Part shown: positions 6,501 through 44,472 of the stretch, piece by piece
Layout: every line of letters begins with the position of its first letter
Position numbering within the stretch: the first letter of the stretch is position 1
From: Eledone cirrhosa
Lineage: Eukaryota
DNA: 64,000 nucleotides
Assembly: GCA_964016885.1 (NCBI GenBank)
Contig: OZ024759.1
Location: forward strand, 15,686,001 to 15,750,000
Direction of reading: 5' to 3'
The notes under the pieces: model-generated
Databases searched by the model: none
The model's input: the letters and a program-made list of their open reading frames with translations, nothing else
Told to the model about the DNA's origin: nothing
Program-made: the position numbers and the translations under genes

Positions 6501-6721
6501 TATAATGACACATCCATATAAATATATGTATGGCTGAATATACCTAAATACCTATAACTAATATGGAACAGAAAATAAATATATACATGGAACCACAGAC
6601 ACACACAGACAGACATATATATATATCGAGAGGGTGAGAGAGTGCGTGTATGTGTCTGTGTGTGTGTGTGTGTGTGTATGTATGTGTGTGTGTGTATGCG
6701 TGTGTGTATTAGATAGATAGA

Positions 6722-7061
6722 TTTCTTTATTAGCCACAAGGGCGCAACAAGAAAGGGGACAATACAAAGACATGCCGGGGATTTTACATACAGTCGTGTA
6801 AAAAATATAAAAACAAACAATTTCAACAATCGAAATCCCCAATAGGGGGGAGGCGCCGCAAATGGGTTGTTTAATACCCCGTCGATAGAACAACCCTCAA
6901 CTCAAGGAGCGTGTTGTGCAAGTGCTCCTTTCTTCCTTTTGCTCTCTTCCTCAACCTACAGGCTTATAAACAGAGAAGGCCCAATCACTCGGGCCATTTT
7001 CGCTTCATTCACCCACCTTTCAGTAAATTTACTGGGGTGCCTCTCTCTCCACCCTGATTCT

Positions 7062-7062
<1 letters not shown>
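6722..7062 (-). mobile_element. 5'-truncated Tx1-clade LINE (diverged relative of 33337-39042) inside (GATA)n
   Basis: The minus strand encodes RIRVERE...ERWVNEAKMARVIGPSLFISL*, against ORF2 RIRMERE...ERWVKEARMARVNGPSLYIVL*. It has the same 3' terminus TGTCCCCTT..TTG.GCCC..GTGGC.AATAAA.GAAA. GATA repeats lie at 6710-6722 and 7062-7145. Confidence 0.92.
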
Positions 7063-7145
<83 letters not shown>

Positions 7146-7199
7146 ATAAATATATGTAGATAGATAGATAGAGTGTGTGTGTATGAGATAGATTTACGT

Positions 7200-9169: not shown

Positions 9170-10165
9170 CATACACAGTCACATACATACGCACACACGC
9201 ACACAAACACACACACAGCCACATAACAGAGACACTTGCATAAAGACGCACAGTCACATATATACGTACACACACACACACATACTTACACGCACACACA
9301 AACACACACACAGTCACATAATAGAGACACTTGCATAAAGACAGACAATCACATATATACGTACATACACACACACACATACTTACACGCACACACAAAC
9401 ACACACACAGTCACATAATAGAGACACTTGCATAAAGACAGACAATCACATATATACGTACATACACACACACACACATACTTACACGCACACACAAACA
9501 CACACACAGTCACATAATAGAGACACTTGCATAAAGACAGACAATCACATATATACGTACATACACACACACACATACTTACACGCACACACAAACACAC
9601 ACACAGCCACATAATAGAGACACTTGCATAAAGACAGACAATCACATATATATACACACATACACACACACATACTTACACGCACACACAAACACACACA
9701 CAGTCACATAACAGAGACACTTGCATAAAGACGCACAGTCACATATATACGTACATACACACACACACATACTTACACGCACACACAAACACACACACAG
9801 CCACATAACAGAGACACTTGCATAAAGACGCACAGTCACATATATACGTACATACACACACACACATACTTACACGCACACACAAACACACACACAGTCA
9901 CATAACAGAGACACTTGCATAAAGACAGACAATCACATATATATATACACATACACACACACACATACTTACACGCACACACAAACACACACACAGTCAC
10001 ATAACAGAGACACTTGCATAAAGACGCACAGTCACATATATACGTACATACACACACACACATACTTACACGCACACACAAACACACACACAGCCACATA
10101 ACAGAGACACTTGCATAAAGACAGACAATCACATATATATATATACACACATACACACACAGTCA
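9170..10165. repeat. ~97-bp minisatellite, about 10 copies
   Basis: GAGACACTTGCATAAAGAC recurs at 9229, 9324, 9421, 9520, 9617, 9714, 9811, 9908, 10007 and 10104. Confidence 0.95.
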
Positions 10166-17451: not shown

Positions 17452-19020
17452 ACTATCACCACCATCACCTGCACCATCGCCACTACCACCACCACTACCA
17501 TCACCACCACCATCACCTGCACCATCACCACTACCATCACCACTACCATCACCACCACCATCACCTGCACCATCACCACTACCATCACCACTACCATCAC
17601 CACCACCATCACCTGCACCATCACCACTACCACCACCACTACCATCACCACCACCATCACCTGCACCATCACCACTACCATCACCACTACCATCACCACC
17701 ACCATCACCTGCACCATCACCACTACCATCACCACTACCATCACCACCACCATCACCTGTACCATCACCACCACCATTACCTGCACCATCACCACCACCA
17801 TCACCTGCACCATCACCACTACCACCACCACTACCATCACCACCACCATCACCTGCACCATCACCACTACCATCACCACTACCATCACCACCACCATCAC
17901 CTGCACCATCACCACTACCACCACCACTACCATCACCACCACCATCACCTGCACCATCACCACTACCACCACCACTACCATCACCACCACCATCACCTGC
18001 ACCATCACCACCACCATCACCTGCACCATCACCACTACCATCACCACTACCATCACCACCACCATCACCTGCACCATCACCACTACCATCACCACTACCA
18101 TCACCACCACCATCACCTGCACCATCACCACTACCACCACCACTACCATCACCACCACCATCACCTGCACCATCACCACTACCACCACCACTACCATCAC
18201 CACCACCATCACCTGCACCATCACCACTACCATCACCACTACCATCACCACCACCATCACCTGCACCATCACCACCACCATCACCTGCACCATCACCACT
18301 ACCATCACCACTACCATCACCACCACCATCACCTGCACCATCACCACCACCATCACCTGCACCATCACCACTACCATCACCACTACCATCACCACCACCA
18401 TCACCTGTACCATCACCACCACCATCACCTGCACCATCACCACTACCATCACCACTACCATCACCACCACCATCACCTGTACCATCACCACTACCATCAC
18501 CTGTACCATCACCTGTACCATCACCACTACCACCACCTTTACCATCACCACTACCTGTACCATCACCGTCACCACTACCACCACAATCACCTGTACCACC
18601 ACCATCACCTGTACCATCACCACTACCACTACCACCACCATCACCTCTACCATCGCCACTCCCACCACCACCACCTGTACCATCACCACCACCTGTACCA
18701 TCACCACCACCTGTACCATCACCACTACCTGTACCATCACCACCACCTGTACCACCACCATCACCTGTACCACCACCATCACCTGTACCATCACCACTAA
18801 CAACACCATTCCCACCTTCATCACTACCACTACCACCACCACCACCACCACTACCACCACCACTACCACCACCACAACCACTACCACCACCACAACCACT
18901 ACCACCACCACCACTATCACCACCACCACTACCACCACCACAACCACCACCACAACCACTACCACCACCACCACCACTATCACCACCACCACTACCACCA
19001 CCACCACCACTATCACCACA
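17452..19020. repeat. (ACCATCACC/ACT/TGC)n minisatellite
   Basis: Directly visible; it explains the TITTTITC and VVVM ORFs. Confidence 0.95.
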
Positions 19021-27528: not shown

Positions 27529-28029
27529 TAAATTATATAAGTTCATAATATGACAGTAAGGCGTTCAGATATTTAAAGCTCAGATGTGGTATTTTCAATA
27601 TCCAGATTGAAAGGTAGTGCTGAGATAAATCCAGATAGTATACGTCATATCATCGTAGATTTATAATCATAGAGAATAAATAAAAGCAAGAAATAGCTCA
27701 CCAAGGTTCAACAATTAATAGAAGGAATTCGTGGTTTACTTGAAGCATTGTATATAGTATAAAAAATTGCAAGTTGTAAATCCATGACAATGTGAATTGG
27801 ACGGAAAATAATCAAGTCGTAAGAAACGGGAGATGTTTTTTTTTTTACCTTAATTTATTCCTATGTCCTGATATTTCGAGAGTAATATCCCTTATTCCGA
27901 GGAAAATAAAGGAACTATTCCAGTGTCCGTCCGGCTTGCTATACCAAGCAGGAGCATGGCATTGCAAGGAAATATCAGGACCTATGAATAAATTAAGCTG
28001 ATATGGTGAACTAACTGGTGTGTTACCAC

Positions 28030-33267: not shown

Positions 33268-33298
<31 letters not shown>

Positions 33299-33299
33299 T

Positions 33300-33334
<35 letters not shown>
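33268..33334. repeat. (GATA)n tract at the 3' flank of the LINE
   Basis: Directly visible. Confidence 0.98.
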
Positions 33335-33335
<1 letters not shown>

Positions 33336-33566
33336 ATTTCTATTTATTTGCCACGAGGGCACAAAAGAAGGGGACATTTACACAGTGGGGGAGTTTACAT
33401 AAATCGAGTAAAGAAAAAAGGAATAACAATAATAATATAACAATAAAAAGTCCTCAAAAGGGAGGGGGCGTGTTGGGGATTGCACATACCCCCGAAAAGT
33501 GTGCAACTCTTTTCGCGGGGGAAGCCCAGAGAGGAGGCGCTCCCCCTTTCCTCTTCACTTCTTCAC

Positions 33567-36500
33567 CTACAGAACAATGTAGAGAGAAGGCCCATTTACA
33601 CGGGCCATTCTCGCTTCTTTCACCCACCTTTCATAAAACTGTCTGGGACCAAGCACTTCTCTCTCCATCCTGATTCTTCTTCCGAAGTGGTATCGGAAGA
33701 AGTAAACCAGGTGATGGCCGGAGAGAAAGTCACCCGACCTCAGACCTTTCAGGCGCGTCCACCACACAACCTCTTTCATCATGGCTATTACGCACAGAAA
33801 GACCGCCTCTGCTTCATTTCTGAAGGGAGGAGGCGGCTTGATGTTCACCACAGACTCGGCGGTTAATCGAATCGGCGCCACACGCGACAGCAGTCGTTCG
33901 ACGTAGCCCCACAGATCGGCAACGCCCGGGCAGTGTACCAGTGCATGCGCAACGGTTTCCTCGTCGCGCACGCATCTGGGACAGATCTTTTTCGCGGGAT
34001 CCCTGCCCGGGCGCCCGTGTCTGTAGAGCTTTTCTCGAACGGGCAGAGCCCCCCGGTAACACTGCCAGGCTAGGGACCTCTGGAAGTTGTCCATGGGTCC
34101 CGGGCCGAAAGTTCTACCGAACAGGCTGGCCAGTTCGTCCTCCTCCATGCCTAGCGACTCTCCAAGGGTGTCGTCGCCCCTGCTAGCCACCAACCCTCTA
34201 TAGAATGTCGAGGTGGATTCTCCACTGACAGTCGGGTCCGCTTGCCAGATAGCCGTGAGCGCCTGGGCACACTCAGTGTGCCAGTTGCCCAGTTTTCTCG
34301 GTCTTTGCTTCACCCAGGATTGCAGTTCGGTGAGCGAGACGAGCTGTGGGAAGGCTCGCCTCACAAACGGGGCCCACACCGGCTGACCGTTGAGGAATAC
34401 CTGTAGATGCCGTAGCCTCAATGCGTGCCTACGCATCAACAGCCACGGCATACCCAGCCCTCCTTTCGAAGGGTGCTGGCAGCAGATGGATCTCCTCACC
34501 ATGGGAGGCCGCTTCTTCCAGAGGAACTGGAAGAGCATGCGTTCCATGATGGTGAGCTTTTCCTTGGGGCAAGGCACGACGGTCAGGCGGTAGTAGATGA
34601 CGGACGCTATGTAAGCGTTCGTCACCTCCGCCCGACCTTTCAGTGATAGTTTGCACTTGGCCCACTTCTGGGTCAGCGCAAACACCCTGCTCGTCACCTC
34701 GCCCCAATTCTTCTCCACCTGGAGGTCCGGTCCGAACCAGACCCCGAGCAGCTTCACCGGGCCCTCCGTCCACCGCCCGACGACACCGTCCAACGGCATC
34801 GGTTTGCCCCTCCACGTTCCGAGTTGCAAACCGACCGACTTGTCCTGGTTCAGCTTAGCCCCCGTCAGCCTTTCGTATTCCTCCAGTAGGGTGGCGATCG
34901 CCCCGATTTCCGAGGCGTCCGCCACCATTACTGTTACGTCGTCGGCATAGGCCGAGACCGCTTTGTGCAATCCCGGTTCCAGGGGTATGCCCCGCAGCAA
35001 CTCCAACTTCCGCAGCAGTGGCTCGAGAGTCAATACGTACAGAAGGGAGGAGAGGGGGCACCCCTGTCTGATGGATCGGGTGATTTGAAACGGCTCCGAG
35101 AGGTAGCCGTTTACTTTAATCCTAGAGTAGATGTTGCCACTGTGCATGGCAGAAATCCAGCCCCTGAAAACGGGTCCGAAGCCCGCCGCCGCTAGCACCG
35201 CATCCAGGTAACCATGGTCGACCCTATCGAACGCCTTAGATTGATCCAAGTTGATCAGGGCCCCACCAAAGCCGGGTTCGTAGCCAACCCTCTCTATGAT
35301 GTATCGCATGAGGTGGAGGTTGTCGTGAATGGACCTGGACGGGATAGCGCATGTCTGCGCGTCTCCCACCAAACCACCCACCACAAGCGCCAACCTCTTC
35401 GTCAACACCTTGGCCAAAATCTGTAACTCTGCATTCAGCAGAGTTATGGGCCTAAAGTTACTTAAGTCGTCCCCCTTGCTCTCGTCCTTCCTCACTAGCG
35501 TGACCACGCCCTTGGTCACAGAACAGGGAATTCTCCCGTTCTGTTGCCAGTTGCAATAGACAGCCTCGAGGAGTTCGGAGAACAAGACCGGCATAGCTAA
35601 ATAAAGTTCGTATGGTAGACCATCGAGACCCGGGGATTTGCGTCTGCTGCATTGGCTGAGCGCTTCCCCGATTTCAGTGGCTGTGATTGGCCCTTCGCAG
35701 CACTCCGCTTCGCCGCTCGAAAGACGCGGTAGACCGTCGAGGTATGGACCGAAGTCCACATCCCCGTCCGGCCCCCCGCCACCTCCGAACAGTCGAGCAA
35801 AGTGCCTTTGAAAGGTCTCGCACATTCGCTCAGGTTCAAGGATCACCCGTCCATCCTGGTCTCGCAAAGACCGAATGGTGGATTTAATCCCACTCTTGGC
35901 TTCTGTCACGCGGGCCCAGCTAACAGCTTTGGTCCCCTCGTTTCCTAAAGCACGTATTTTACTTCGGACAACGCAGCCTTCGTGCTTCGCGTCAAAGAAC
36001 TGGCTCAATGCCGTTCTCGTCGCTAACACTCTGGCTACGTCTCCGCTCCTAATCGCCTCTTCTAGTTTATCTGTTAACTCCCTTTCCCTCCTATTTCTAT
36101 TCGCCGCTAGTTCCTTACTGTAACCTATCGAACTTACTCTAATCTCTCTCTTTAGAGATACCCACCACCTGCTGTTGACGATCGCTCCCGTCAACCGCAT
36201 CTTAACTAAGCTACTAATCCGGTTTCTGTAATCTTTCTTTGTCGGTAAGGACAAGTTCATCTTCCAGTAACCGGGACCCTGTCTATGCGTTCTATCAAGG
36301 TTGACCACGCAGGTCACTAATTTGTGATCTGAATAGCCAACCATGATCAGTTCTGGACAACTAAATACGTCCCTATCCTTACTCCTAACCAAAAACCTAT
36401 CTAGGTACGATCTAGATTGTCCACTGCGGTTTGCCCAGGTCCAGGTTGGCGCAGTTGGACAATCTAGTCGAAATCTATCGACCAGGTCGAATCGATCGAG

Positions 36501-36995
36501 TAACCCCTTGAGGCTGCTACACCCCCCTCTATCGGGACATGCCCCTGCATAGTCCCAACGCGCATCTAGGATTCCATTCCAGTCCCCCACTAAAAGCAGG
36601 GAACGCGACGTTCCTAGAAAAGTCTCCAGACGTTGGAAGAAGTCGGCTCTCTCCGCCCCGAAGGGAGCATAAAGACCGACCAGTCTGAAAGCCCCGCCTT
36701 CACCACCTCCGACGTCCAGCACCAGTAATCGACCCCCCGGGTCCGAGTGAACAATCTGTACGTCGAGAGTCAGACGTTTATCCAGCAGTACGGCAACTCC
36801 CCCCCCGCCTCCGGGTTGACAGAGAGATGCGTGCATCTCAAAGTCATCGAAGGCGGGCGCCAGCTGTCTCACGCTGCTGATCCGACTCTCGCAAACAACC
36901 ATCACATCTATACTTTGTGACCTGAGGTCACTTAGAAGCTTTGCTTGCTTCCAAGCTGAGCTCAGGCCACGCGCGTTCAAACAGCCAACTCTCAA
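33567..36995 (-). CDS. LINE ORF2: AP-like endonuclease, reverse transcriptase and C-terminal CCHC zinc finger (1142 aa, uninterrupted)
   Basis: EN motifs LNARGL, CESR, LYAP, GDWN, YLDRF, SDH. Linker GPGYWKMN. RT motifs SPGLDG, FRPITLLN, LDQSKAFD, RQGCPLS, YADD, KLLG, KGGLG. Zinc finger CPRC..EETVAHALVHC. The start codon is uncertain (TTG). Confidence 0.97.
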   Translation of the reverse strand: MRVGCLNARGLSSAWKQAKLLSDLRSQSIDVMVVCESRISSVRQLAPAFDDFEMHASLCQPGGGGGVAVLLDKRLTLDVQIVHSDPGGRLLVLDVGGGEGGAFRLVGLYAPFGAERADFFQRLETFLGTSRSLLLVGDWNGILDARWDYAGACPDRGGCSSLKGLLDRFDLVDRFRLDCPTAPTWTWANRSGQSRSYLDRFLVRSKDRDVFSCPELIMVGYSDHKLVTCVVNLDRTHRQGPGYWKMNLSLPTKKDYRNRISSLVKMRLTGAIVNSRWWVSLKREIRVSSIGYSKELAANRNRRERELTDKLEEAIRSGDVARVLATRTALSQFFDAKHEGCVVRSKIRALGNEGTKAVSWARVTEAKSGIKSTIRSLRDQDGRVILEPERMCETFQRHFARLFGGGGGPDGDVDFGPYLDGLPRLSSGEAECCEGPITATEIGEALSQCSRRKSPGLDGLPYELYLAMPVLFSELLEAVYCNWQQNGRIPCSVTKGVVTLVRKDESKGDDLSNFRPITLLNAELQILAKVLTKRLALVVGGLVGDAQTCAIPSRSIHDNLHLMRYIIERVGYEPGFGGALINLDQSKAFDRVDHGYLDAVLAAAGFGPVFRGWISAMHSGNIYSRIKVNGYLSEPFQITRSIRQGCPLSSLLYVLTLEPLLRKLELLRGIPLEPGLHKAVSAYADDVTVMVADASEIGAIATLLEEYERLTGAKLNQDKSVGLQLGTWRGKPMPLDGVVGRWTEGPVKLLGVWFGPDLQVEKNWGEVTSRVFALTQKWAKCKLSLKGRAEVTNAYIASVIYYRLTVVPCPKEKLTIMERMLFQFLWKKRPPMVRRSICCQHPSKGGLGMPWLLMRRHALRLRHLQVFLNGQPVWAPFVRRAFPQLVSLTELQSWVKQRPRKLGNWHTECAQALTAIWQADPTVSGESTSTFYRGLVASRGDDTLGESLGMEEDELASLFGRTFGPGPMDNFQRSLAWQCYRGALPVREKLYRHGRPGRDPAKKICPRCVRDEETVAHALVHCPGVADLWGYVERLLSRVAPIRLTAESVVNIKPPPPFRNEAEAVFLCVIAMMKEVVWWTRLKGLRSGDFLSGHHLVYFFRYHFGRRIRMEREVLGPRQFYERWVKEARMARVNGPSLYIVL

Positions 36996-37000
36996 TTGAT

Positions 37001-38840
37001 CTATTTTGGTGTTGAAAGTGAAGAAAGAAAAGCACTTACCTCTCCGGGTTGCGTAATTTCCATGGCATCAGGTGTGTTGGGTGGAGGGATGTTTTGTGGT
37101 GGTGTGGGGGTACACGTGTGTGGTGGGGTTGGGGTATTTGGAGTTGTGTCAGGGAGAGGGGCGGTTATGGGGAAATCTTTCAAGAGGACGCGATTCAACG
37201 GTTTTAAACAGGGGGGGCTCACGTCCCGTCTAAATTGTTCTTTTAAGGAACGATAAAGGTCCAGAGGGACCTTTATCATTTTTAAATGGGTGAAGTTCTC
37301 TGTTGAGATAAAGTTTGGCCCTTCGGTCTGCACCATAGGGTTATTGTTTATTAATTTAACCAGTTTTTTGTTTTCTTTATTTATATATGTGTATTGCAAC
37401 GTCTTTTTTTTGTGATGCTGTCAATGTTTCGGAGAGGGGAGGCGCAGATTTATTTTTGTTTGTTGAGGGTGGGGTGTTTTTGATTGGAGTTGGTGTTTGT
37501 GTGTGGGTTATTTGTGGTGTGCTGGGTGTGTGTTTTCTTTTTTTTCTTTTAACTTGTCTGAAGGCTTCTCCTCCTTCTTCTTCAGAAGTTGGGGGAAACT
37601 CTTCAGCGCTAGGTGGGAGGGACGTGTTGTGTGGTTGTTTTTTTTTTGCGGGAGGGGTAGATTTGTTACTGTTTTTTTTATTATTTGTTTGGAATGGGTT
37701 TTGTGGTGGTGGTGGTGGTGGTAATGTTTGTGTCGTGCTTGTGGTTGGTAATGGTGGTGGTGATGTTTGTGTTGTGGTTGGTGGTGGTGATTTTTGTGTC
37801 GTGCTTGTGTTTGGTGCTGGTGGTGGTGATGTTTGTGTTGTGTTTGTGGTTGGTGGTGTCTGTATTTTGTTTGCTGTGTGTGGTATTAGTGTATTTTTGG
37901 AGGTGGGTGGTGCTGGTGTACTGTTTGTGGTGGGTGTGGGCAATAGTCCTTTTTGGGGGATACGTTTCGGGCAGTTAGCCTTAACGTGTCCCCTTTCCAT
38001 GCATAAATAGCATGCTGGTCTTCTCCCCTCTACAATTATGTCTATTGGGGTAAGGTCATCCAGCCAGATGCGATCCGGGATTTGTGCTATTCTTTCGGGC
38101 CTCATTTGGACTAGTATGTCGAGGCCCATTCCCAGGAACGCATCTCCAGTTGCCTTCCCCATTGACAGCATAGTGTCTTCGCCCATATCAATGAAGCCAG
38201 CAATAGCCCACCAGAAGTCCATTGTGGGCAGCATTGTTTTTACTTTTATTCTCTGAGTTCTTCTACCCATGTAGGAGGGATAGAAGCTATATGTTGTCGA
38301 CGAGAGTGGGCTTAGGGAAAGCTGAACCGCCGTTTCTTTGTCTCTTGTTAGGACCGAAATGCTGCCATAGAGTCGGTCCTTTCGTATGAAGAGAATATTC
38401 TTCATATAGTCTTTTAGGACTAACTCTATTTCCATTTGGCTGGGCTGTGCTGGCTTTCTTGACTGGTTTAGTATAGTTCTGTATATAACTGTGTTTTCTG
38501 CTCTGGCTTTCTTGAATTCTGGGGGGGAGTTAATGGAAAACATTCCGTTTTCCCCCAAAACAATATGTTTCTTTGCTTCGGCCAGTTTTTCTCTGGCGGC
38601 AGTTAGGTCAATTGGTGTGTATGTAATGGATTGCTTTGTTTTCTGGGCGAAAGTTGCCCTGTCGTTATTTGTATTATTTTCTGTTTGTTTGTTTTCTGTT
38701 TGCTCATTTTCCTTAACATTTGTTTTTTCATTTTGTTTGTTTGTTTCAATGTCTAATTTTGTTGTAATTATTTTTTGTTCTTCAGACTTGGGGGGCGTGG
38801 CAGAGCTAATGGCAGACATGTCTGCCATCTTTTCCGCCAT
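37001..38840 (-). CDS. LINE ORF1 (gag-like, CCHC zinc knuckle, Pro/Thr-rich C-terminus), split by a 1-nt frameshift in an A8 run
   Basis: ATG at 38840 (MAEKMADM) and VEGRRPACYLCMERGHVKANCP. Removing one A from the run at 37404-37411 joins ORF 37377-38867 to ORF 37001-37399 (SQKK-TLQYTY..), giving ~612 aa. Confidence 0.85.
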
Positions 38841-39041
38841 GCTGCCAAGAAAGAAATTTTTCGGCAAAAATAGATATTTATTTTACCCCCTAAAAAGGGG
38901 GTAAATGCAAAAATGTTTCCCTAAATAACAGGGGTTAGTGTTCCAAATGTGTTGCACTAAAAAATTTATCCGGTACTTACAATAGCAAGGGTAAATCCCG
39001 ATGGAATAGCGGAGCCGATGCGAAGCGTGTCTTACTCTATC

Positions 39042-39042
<1 letters not shown>

Positions 39043-39081
<39 letters not shown>

Positions 39082-39110
39082 CAGATATATAGACAGATAT
39101 ATAGATAGAT
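39043..39110. repeat. (GATA)n tract at the 5' flank of the LINE
   Basis: Directly visible. Confidence 0.98.
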
Positions 39111-42890: not shown

Positions 42891-44394
42891 AGACAGTGAA
42901 TTCTACCTTCTAGAACTAATCGAAAAATCTCCTTAAATCTCTAATTGCTATCTTTTTTAAAAACGAAGAATATATAAGATTAGGAAGATCTAGAAACACA
43001 ATATGTGGGAGAAAGTTGAGATAGCTCTGAGCGGGAGGTCTTTAATAATTGGTTTACTGCTCAATAATTTTCAGATCAATAAAAGCAATGTTCAGATTTT
43101 CGTGAAATAGCAGGAAAACCACCCTCAAATTACTCATTCCTTTCGTAAATAGTGTTGTCTTATTAGGCTACCATAGTGGGAATTGAACGGTAAATGTTTA
43201 AAAATATGATGACAAATTTATCGATCGACCTTCATAAAATCGGACCGAGGAAACAATGTGTCCGTTCGTCTTACAAATTCCTAATACTATTTATCGGTCG
43301 CAACTCCAGCTGAGGGAGCAACGTGAAATAAAGTGTCTTGCTCAAGGACATAACCCTTCATCAAAAGATTAATAGAAGAGTCTAATTCTGAGCTGCATAT
43401 GTTTTTGACGAAATTTAAGAAAGACAAAACATTTACATAGAGCACCGAACTAGTTTCTTCTATTAATCTTTTGATGAGGGAATTTTATCCCGAAATACAA
43501 GGTCCCATAAAGAACTGCAATGTAACATCCTAACATCATTTTTATCATCATATTTTTAACATTTACTACTGTCCAATTCATATTGTGCTAGCCTTCAAAG
43601 AAAATACTGTTTTCTACACTTTACACAAATACCCGCCGGAAATTACAACACCCTTGTACTTGTTACTATATTTAGGGAAACAATATGATATTAGCTCATG
43701 TAGTTCTAGACATATAATACCTGAGGAAAAAACATTTGGATAGTAATAAGAAGGAGGTCGTTGATCATCGATCTGCTTTCAATGAAGTTTCAATCAATCG
43801 GGGTCAAACAAAGAACACGTTGTGATGACGAATACAAAGACGTTATCTATAGAGTTACTTGAAACTATTGTGTAACTATTGTGTAATAATATACTTGAAA
43901 CAACGACTGAAGTTGTATAGCCCAGCAGGGTGGTAGCTTTGTCGTGGCCAATGGCGAGGAGAGGCTGGTTCGTTTAATAGTAAACAAATGTGTTCCTTTT
44001 GTTTTCTTTCGCTAATGCTTGTTAGTGAAACTAATTTAATTTCCGATTAGCAAAATAATTATTATCCACTCTCGACATCTATTATCTAGAGTATACAACG
44101 TTTTCGCTATCCATCTACATATATGTGTGTGCATGTGTCTACATTTCTCTGTCTCATTTATATATATATATATATATATACACTCACACATACATATATC
44201 TATATATCCAACTCTCTCTCTATCTATATTTCTACTTATCTATCCACTCACACAAATATATATTGCATATATATATATATATCCAGCTTTCTCTCTCTCT
44301 CTATCTATACATTCACACATACATATATTTCATATCTTTCTATTCAGCTCTCTCTCTATCTATCCACACACATATATATCTATCTATCTATATC

Positions 44395-44448
44395 CTTCCC
44401 CCTTTGTATTTGTCCCCTTCTTTTGTGCCCCTGTGGCTAATAAAGAAA
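44395..44448 (+). mobile_element. ~55-bp extreme 3' end of the same Tx1 LINE family inside (TATC)n
   Basis: TATCTATCTATCTATATC|CTTCCCCCTTTGTATTTGTCCCCTTCTTTTGTGCCCCTGTGGCTAATAAAGAAA|CATATCTAT matches the termini of the other two copies. Confidence 0.85.
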
Positions 44449-44472
44449 CATATCTATATATATATATATATA

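Follow-up and report, generated by a model that had tools for sequence, protein, structure and literature searches.

Waldo, Mino and Dong, long interspersed nuclear elements (LINEs) of the R1 and R4 clades, are known for a preference for microsatellites. Their targets are (ACAY)n, (AC)n and (TAA)n, respectively (PMC3812793), and in the Tx1 clade the same habit has been described for Kibi on (TC)n, Koshi on (TTC)n and the crocodilian Tx1-1_Crp group on (TTCC)n/(TTTC)n (PMC4494074; PMC3812793). In the part of PMC4494074 that deals with these families, more than 20% of flanks in one repeat type is taken as the criterion for microsatellite targeting. The mechanism is described as poorly understood and is believed to be endonuclease-based in the corresponding section of a review (PMC3812793), while pairing between element RNA and target has precedents in SART1 and R1Bm (PMC7265360) and in the I factor, R1Bm and R2Ol (PMC6007223), as far as the relevant passages of these papers go. 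Here we report on a LINE lineage with three insertions beside TATC (GATA) repeats in a window of 64,000 nt, the whole stretch of DNA that was analysed, from Eledone cirrhosa (GCA_964016885.1, OZ024759.1, 15,686,001-15,750,000, forward strand). From the comparison of its copies we consider it probable that this is a young L1/Tx1-type lineage which has Y|TATC as its insertion site, in most cases within (TATC)n, and which would choose this site in two steps, by a loose nick and by pairing of the 3' end of its RNA.

The window holds a full-length element of family A (copy 1), a 5'-truncated copy of family B1 (copy 2), which matches copy 1 at 77% over 125 bp and other copies in the genome at 98%, and a 3' stub of family C (copy 3). 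Their 3' junctions read GAAA-TT|TATC, GAAA-TC|TATC and GAAA-CA|TATC, respectively, and copy 2 (row L069) is framed by an 11-bp target duplication, TATCTATCTAA. The 5' junction of copy 1 reads TATC|TTGATAG, with the end at 39043, one base further than the 39042 given in a preliminary description of the window. That description had placed TATC on both sides of all three insertions, in a constant orientation and a shared 3' register. The orientation is indeed the same in 3/3 insertions and so is the register, but the two bases after GAAA (TT, TC, CA) are the element's own, and TATC repeats on both sides is a generous description of copy 3, where a single 3' TATC unit is followed by an AT run. Its judgement that three cases out of three are unlikely by chance is borne out by the background of 0.02-0.4%: of 115,034 strand positions not covered by the three elements, 25 (0.02%) begin a TATCTAT and 450 (0.39%) a TATC, and seven of the eight GATA tracts of at least 12 bp in the window touch these elements. 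The simple-repeat tracts of the window comprise 8 of GATA versus 184 of AT, 65 of AC and 39 of ACAT.

Exact words from the ends of family A occur 776 times (3' 22-mer) and 316 times (5' 23-mer) in the genome. Among the best 40 matches, 38 of which were fetched with two tandem neighbours omitted, TTTATC stands behind GAAA in 38/38, and 36 copies align end to end at 97.4-99.9% with TATC|TTGATAG. In a positional sample, two bases and then TATC were found at 29 of 30 3' ends, five of the 30 belonging to a relative at about 82%, and TATC preceded all 30 5' ends, with at least two units in 29. Family A is unusually rich in full-length copies (29/30 positional copies exceed 1.5 kb), and B1 is mostly truncated. 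B1 has 1,354 exact 3' ends in the genome and is 74% identical to family A in the second open reading frame (ORF2) and 67% in the endonuclease. Its 3' flanks start with TATCTATC in 48 of 62 cases, so that, measured against a share of 20% of flanks, the counts are 29/30 and 30/30 for A and 48/62 for B1. At least 8 bp of TATC repeat lie at the 5' junction of 34 of 43 truncated B1 copies, across many different truncation points, and 35 of the 43 have a duplication of at least 6 bp. Ten B1 duplications extend into non-repeat sequence; they measure 10-20 bp, begin with TATC and are preceded by C or T (10/10 informative). One B1 copy (L161) sits at a single TATC inside the coding sequence of another repeat with an ordinary 16-bp duplication, and the 16-bp motif is present once at the empty site in contigs of 4/4 runs and as a single motif at 9/9 paralogous sites. 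TATC therefore precedes the insertion, as the empty site and the duplications starting with TATC both require, and the lineage targets it. The host of L161 (L161:900-2250) is itself a very abundant RT-type repeat with 3,514 candidates in the genome.

Thus the target site is Y|TATC, and the microsatellite is its commonest but not a required form; the GATA-repeat-specific lineage proposed before keeps its TATC/GATA preference and fixed register and loses its strict dependence on a repeat. The genome-wide tally of flanks, which the preliminary description had recommended, shows TATC strongly enriched over background, and the outcome that would have spoken against targeting, a lack of TATC at most 5' junctions, did not occur. 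The expectation of at least two subfamilies was likewise correct, with A, B1, B2 and C found, and the lineage is confirmed as real and not due to chance. Among 303 distinct 3' ends in the targeted samples, the target begins with TATC in 191, AATA in 68, ATTA in 22, TCTC in 5 and TTTC in 1. Family C is represented by five fetched copies, which are scattered and older; a CACA or GTGT target was considered for it and rejected, as these five gave no coherent subfamily. In contigs of another organism (run X6), GATA repeats were also seen behind B-type ends.

Seven of the 30 best matches to copy 2 end in GAAA-TC|AATA instead of TC|TATC. These copies, termed B2 (123 exact 3' ends), are 99% identical to B1 and insert at Y|AATA in AT-rich unique or satellite DNA, not at GATA. 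A TATC repeat was found at the 5' junction of 0/62 truncated B2 copies and a duplication in 43/62, and the informative duplications, mostly of 7-21 bp, begin with AATA after C or T in 45/45 cases. As B2 had first been gathered by its tail, copies were redrawn by an internal synonymous single-nucleotide polymorphism (SNP) alone, located 520 bp upstream, whose alleles A and G occur 57 and 320 times in the genome; 30 copies were drawn for each, a few of them duplicates. Allele A led to AAT ends in 29/30 copies, and allele G to TATC-type ends in 28/30 and AAT ends in two. The remaining copy with the A allele (L268) stops within its AATAAA signal, at GGCTAATA, a pattern suggestive of internal priming at AATA. 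Within the B2 target, position +4 is fixed by the search pattern (27/29 in the unbiased sample), +5 is T in 57/65 and +6 is T in 34/65 copies; TC|AATC and TC|CATC were found as single odd junctions. Four B2 copies of different lengths (L129-L132; L209, L210, L194), two of them full length, share the same AATATT position of a satellite unit on C1, which makes this satellite a possible place of origin for the AATA lineage.

The endonuclease domain of the B2 copies L194, L206 and L212 is letter-identical to that of the B1 copy L196, so that the endonuclease alone does not explain the B2 target. A GATA-specific endonuclease as the cause, implied in the preliminary description, does not account for B2, which combines the same endonuclease with a different target. 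The rule of the Tx1L and TRAS1/SART1 model, that different targets go with different endonucleases, fails for B1 and B2 and holds for a sister family, which was found among 552 ends without T at the third base. This family is about 65-74% alike in DNA, ends in GAAA-NN|ATTA and has ATT runs at both ends in 7/8 long copies, and its endonuclease differs at many positions. ORF2 of its copies L494, L495, L496, L497, L503, L504 and L505 is about 55-68% identical to that of B1.

Directly seen in the copies are insertion after a pyrimidine, duplications of about 7-21 bp starting with TATC (B1) or AATA (B2), and two fixed element bases before the target. At the junction there is no tail other than target sequence, and within each lineage the first 4-5 bases of the target are fixed, both as expected for pairing between RNA and target. 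We suggest that the endonuclease would cut the bottom strand on the 5' side of a purine, with a loose consensus, Y|TATCT (B1) and Y|AATAT (B2) having Y|WATMT in common. RNA cleavage normally takes place 10-30 bases after AATAAA, which here lies 6-10 bases ahead of the junction, so transcription would be expected to pass AATAAA-GAAA-NN into the flank and leave an RNA with 4-8 bases copied from the target of the parent element. Reverse transcription would then be primed, beginning at NN, the two terminal element bases, only where the free 3' end of a nick can pair with this flank-derived stretch, and a second nick 7-21 bp away would yield the duplication. Since the bases at the junction of a new copy derive from the target and occur at either end of the duplication, mis-priming would provide a new address for later copies, and a copy mis-primed at AATA would make AATA the target of those that descend from it. 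A few bases at the end of the element RNA, and not the enzyme alone, are likely to choose the site. The wider proposal of a self-templated RNA guide is in our view evenly balanced: each copy would read its own site into RNA, so that the target is inherited via the flank and can be switched by one mis-primed insertion without a change of the enzyme, with at least two switches from TATC to AATA and with much of the GATA stock built by the TATC loop.

Several observations weigh against this two-step reading. The B2 endonuclease was read in eight copies only, three identical to B1, three with 1-2 private changes and two frameshifted, and for a second AATA sub-lineage it was seen in one frameshifted copy. 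Duplications are absent from 19/62 truncated B2 and 8/43 truncated B1 copies; in family A most cannot be delimited inside perfect repeats, and in several cases with an imperfect 3' flank the 5' side lacks a matching sequence, so family A may often make short duplications or none. The AATA copies are partly tandem duplicates or lie in one satellite (L149-152, L266/267, L277/278, L129-132), and their counts therefore overstate independence. Exchange of the endonuclease between TRAS1 and SART1 moved the target, as cited in PMC1919474, and the clearly different endonuclease of the ATT family suggests that protein changes may matter for larger shifts.

The last two points also favour the view that protein alone sets the target, in line with the classic model, and that a change elsewhere than in the endonuclease (D932Y, M858I or ORF1) moved B2, the exceptions being RNAs moved in trans, which we regard as unlikely. 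D932Y, the sole majority amino-acid difference in ORF2, is carried by 28/35 AATA copies and 1/33 TATC copies; being absent from 7/35 of the former, it is neither necessary nor sufficient and was rejected as the cause of the switch. Four of these seven copies share three derived SNPs (4/4), one of which is M858I, which argues for a source copy of their own; two SNPs of this group also occur in the TATC copy L201. The remaining three AATA copies have neither D932Y nor M858I, and two unrelated substitutions would need to yield the same new target. In ORF1, one non-synonymous difference was scored (Q to R, element position 1658), and it is not fixed among the AATA copies; among the copies examined no change common to all AATA copies was found in the protein or the 3' untranslated region (UTR). 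The switch from TATC to AATA occurred twice, or once plus later recombination.

Decidedly less likely is that another family, with an AATA-preferring endonuclease, supplies the enzyme which moves B2 RNA in trans. Such a use of foreign RNA would be eased by the last 18-20 bases, which are nearly identical across A, B, C and the ATT family, but B2 has its own open ORF2 (L206), and no other AATA-ending family was seen among the first 100 of the 552 non-TATC ends. Moreover, the 3' UTRs of B1 and B2 have no fixed difference, so a foreign enzyme would have to make use of the tail, which would again be the determinant.

It has also to be considered that no targeting takes place and that the element, with TATC repeats at its two ends, seeds GATA microsatellites wherever it happens to land. 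It is true that a short TATC head belongs to the full-length copies themselves: in the B2 copies L209, L210 and L248, which lie outside GATA DNA, the duplication is followed by CTATCTA[T/A]CTCTC and the element, a fourth full-length B2 copy (L226) having different bases at this position, and the family A copy L045 shows a 20-bp duplication plus three further TATC units. The earlier statement that the 5' repeats cannot be element-encoded therefore applies to truncated copies only, and in full-length copies these repeats are partly the element's own. The lineage also touches most GATA tracts of the window. A run of four TATC units preceded by a base other than C begins at 27,717 places in the genome, and 22 of the first 30 adjoin the lineage, although these 30 come from one 15-Mb stretch where single loci contribute several of them, and the search pattern is biased towards tails whose last base is not C. 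Random planting is nevertheless very improbable and is refuted for B1, where TATC accompanies many truncation points, where duplications starting with TATC run into unique sequence and where the empty site of L161 already holds the motif; the elements likely lengthen tracts and do not create the first TATC. Under the two-step reading, each TATC insertion would leave TATC on both sides, through duplication and head. In this way the lineage likely replenishes and extends its own TATC target, in agreement with the numerous head-to-tail stacks. Broad insertion with survival only where it is harmless is hardly credible: the genome is indeed very rich in simple repeats, but register and strand are base-exact in copies 99-100% identical to each other and GATA tracts are far rarer than those of AT, AC and ACAT.

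Coordinates of the three insertions and of the coding regions of copy 1 are compiled in Table 1. The claim of an intact endonuclease was sound, as ORF2 of copy 1 is open and contains both an APE-type endonuclease and a reverse transcriptase (RT). The RT core is closest to human L1 ORF2p among solved structures (E 6.5e-49; R2, E 2.5e-23). In ORF1 of copy 1 the frame shifts at an A run near 37411; copies with an open frame encode 611 aa (amino acids) and end at the TAG at 37001-37003. A Pfam search with ORF1 gave no match, and both ORFs are open in 12/36 other full-length copies of family A. A separate ORF1 with a gag-like CCHC knuckle is a feature of L1/Tx1-type LINEs, as are an ORF2 with N-terminal APE endonuclease, RT and C-terminal zinc region (here below the Pfam cut-off), 5' truncation and target-site duplication, all of which were found. 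ORF2 of family A has no ATG start; in 37/37 copies an ATA overlaps the ORF1 stop (window 36990-37030, minus strand), which points to a non-AUG start or termination-reinitiation, and B1 has ATG at this position. A splice-donor-like GTAAGT stands about 40 bases upstream of the ORF2 start in both families. At the 3' end, none of the 303 distinct ends is followed by five or more A, and a small hairpin, although present in 8/8 folds, has merely 3-4 pairs and was not used as evidence. Elsewhere in the window, tandem arrays occupy 9170-10157 (97-bp unit, 10 copies) and 17457-19010 (48-bp unit, 32 copies), and a TA-flanked sequence (tacgagggtaatccc...) directly behind the stub, from 44474 onward, resembles a Tc1/mariner-type end.

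Table 1. Positions of the LINE insertions, their target sequences and the coding regions of copy 1 in the window.
Feature	Position	Strand	Remarks
Family A LINE, full length (copy 1)	33337..39043	-	5,707 bp
(TATC)n tract behind 3' end of copy 1	33268..33334	-	target side
(TATC)n tract before 5' end of copy 1	39044..39110	-	target duplication and likely element-encoded head
Conserved 3' terminus of copy 1	33335..33358	-	candidate GCC..GGC hairpin, AATAAA (33343-33348), GAAA, TT
ORF1 of copy 1	37377..38840	-	487 aa as present; CCHC knuckle (CYLCMERGHVKANC)
ORF2 of copy 1	33567..37028	-	1,153 aa stop to stop, open
APE-type endonuclease domain	36315..36995	-	about aa 12-238; Pfam PF03372, E 1.8e-11; matches L1 endonuclease structures
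Reverse transcriptase core	34737..35471	-	aa 520-764; Pfam PF00078, E 1e-23
C-terminal zinc-binding region	33909..34076	-	aa 985-1040; PF13966, E 2.8e-5, under curated cut-off
Family B1 copy, 5'-truncated (copy 2)	6720..7062	-	341 bp plus terminal TC at 6720-6721
3' copy of 11-bp duplication of copy 2	6709..6719	-	
5' copy of this duplication and remaining (TATC)n tract	7061..7172	-	duplication at 7061-7071
Family C 3' stub (copy 3)	44395..44450	+	ends GAAA-CA
5' copy of 9-bp duplication of copy 3	44385..44393	+	TATCTATAT, C before it; read from sequence
3' copy of 9-bp duplication of copy 3	44451..44459	+	TATCTATAT; read from sequence

For placement, a FastTree phylogeny was calculated from 89 RT domains (97 candidates, one dropped and identical rows merged), with unnamed references. 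Families A and B fall into a clade of support 0.97 together with unnamed elements flanked by U1, U2 or U5, apart from plant L1-like proteins, and P0020, the sole protein named 'TX1' by its source, is placed outside this clade with a long branch, and the inner nodes lack support. Membership in the Tx1 clade is likely, with indirect support. The closest outside relatives (P0002-P0011) share 38-45% identity, and relatives from metagenomes 24-39% (best 80 of 475). No TATC flanks were seen in 16 metagenome relatives read by eye at their ends, and a transfer RNA scan of 51 gave just 2 weak calls; the distant metagenome relatives L349, L351, L358, L364, L374, L411 and L416 lie directly at U2, U1 or U5 small nuclear RNA (snRNA) sequences.

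As microsatellite targeting by Tx1-type LINEs is already known, a GATA target alone is a modest addition. Neither a GATA target nor a natural switch without endonuclease change was found in the parts covered of the literature searched, including PMC3812793, PMC13282606 with its supplement, PMC10294476, PMC5035012 and PMC10830416, with Repbase, Dfam and the supplements of PMC4494074 outside this scope. The B1/B2 pair, young, 99% identical and with one endonuclease for mutually exclusive targets, is worth more, as it makes the open question of the mechanism testable by a two-base change in the template RNA. If the site is picked by the RNA end, this would offer Tx1 elements a simple route to their many targets, provide a natural APE-type retrotransposon whose short address can be programmed, and join a LINE and a microsatellite class in a feedback loop.

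Compared to the known systems, the lineage shares with Kibi, Koshi and Tx1-1_Crp the two ORFs, the APE endonuclease and the in-register insertion into a short tandem repeat, as far as described in the sections cited above. It differs in its target, TATC with ATT and AATA in its sisters, which is not pure pyrimidine and does not place it with the TC, TTC, TTCC or TTTC types, in the sufficiency of a single Y|TATC and in the target switch without endonuclease change. Similar to snRNA-targeting Tx1 elements (Keno on U2 and the U5 families; PMC4494074, in part), its RT groups with unnamed elements located at U1, U2 or U5, but at 25-35% identity only, and its target is a repeat and not an RNA gene. 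Dong shares the TAA/ATT unit with the ATT sister family, but Waldo, Mino and Dong belong to other clades, and a GATA target is absent from that list in the portion of the review concerned (PMC3812793). Unlike CR1, L2, RTE and I elements, whose tandem-repeat tails are element-encoded, TATC is found here at the 5' junction of most truncated B1 copies and the empty site holds the motif. SART1Bm and R1Bm likewise have a loose endonuclease consensus and short target-like RNA bases, which have been proposed to anneal to the nicked strand and thereby fix the start of reverse transcription (PMC7265360; PMC1919474, relevant passages); they belong to the R1 clade, however, pairing there sets precision while the endonuclease is considered to choose the site, and SART1 junctions carry poly(A), in contrast to 0/303 here. 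With the snap-velcro model of human L1 (PMC3649969, as outlined there), the lineage would share a nick 5' of a purine (R/TTTT), which is matched by C or T at base -1 in B2 (45/45) and B1 (10/10), about four critical paired bases and a weaker zone beyond, which the fall in conservation from +4 to +6 in B2 resembles. Whereas L1 pairs poly(A) with T tracts, mixed bases from the flank would pair in this lineage, and these would be both heritable and switchable.

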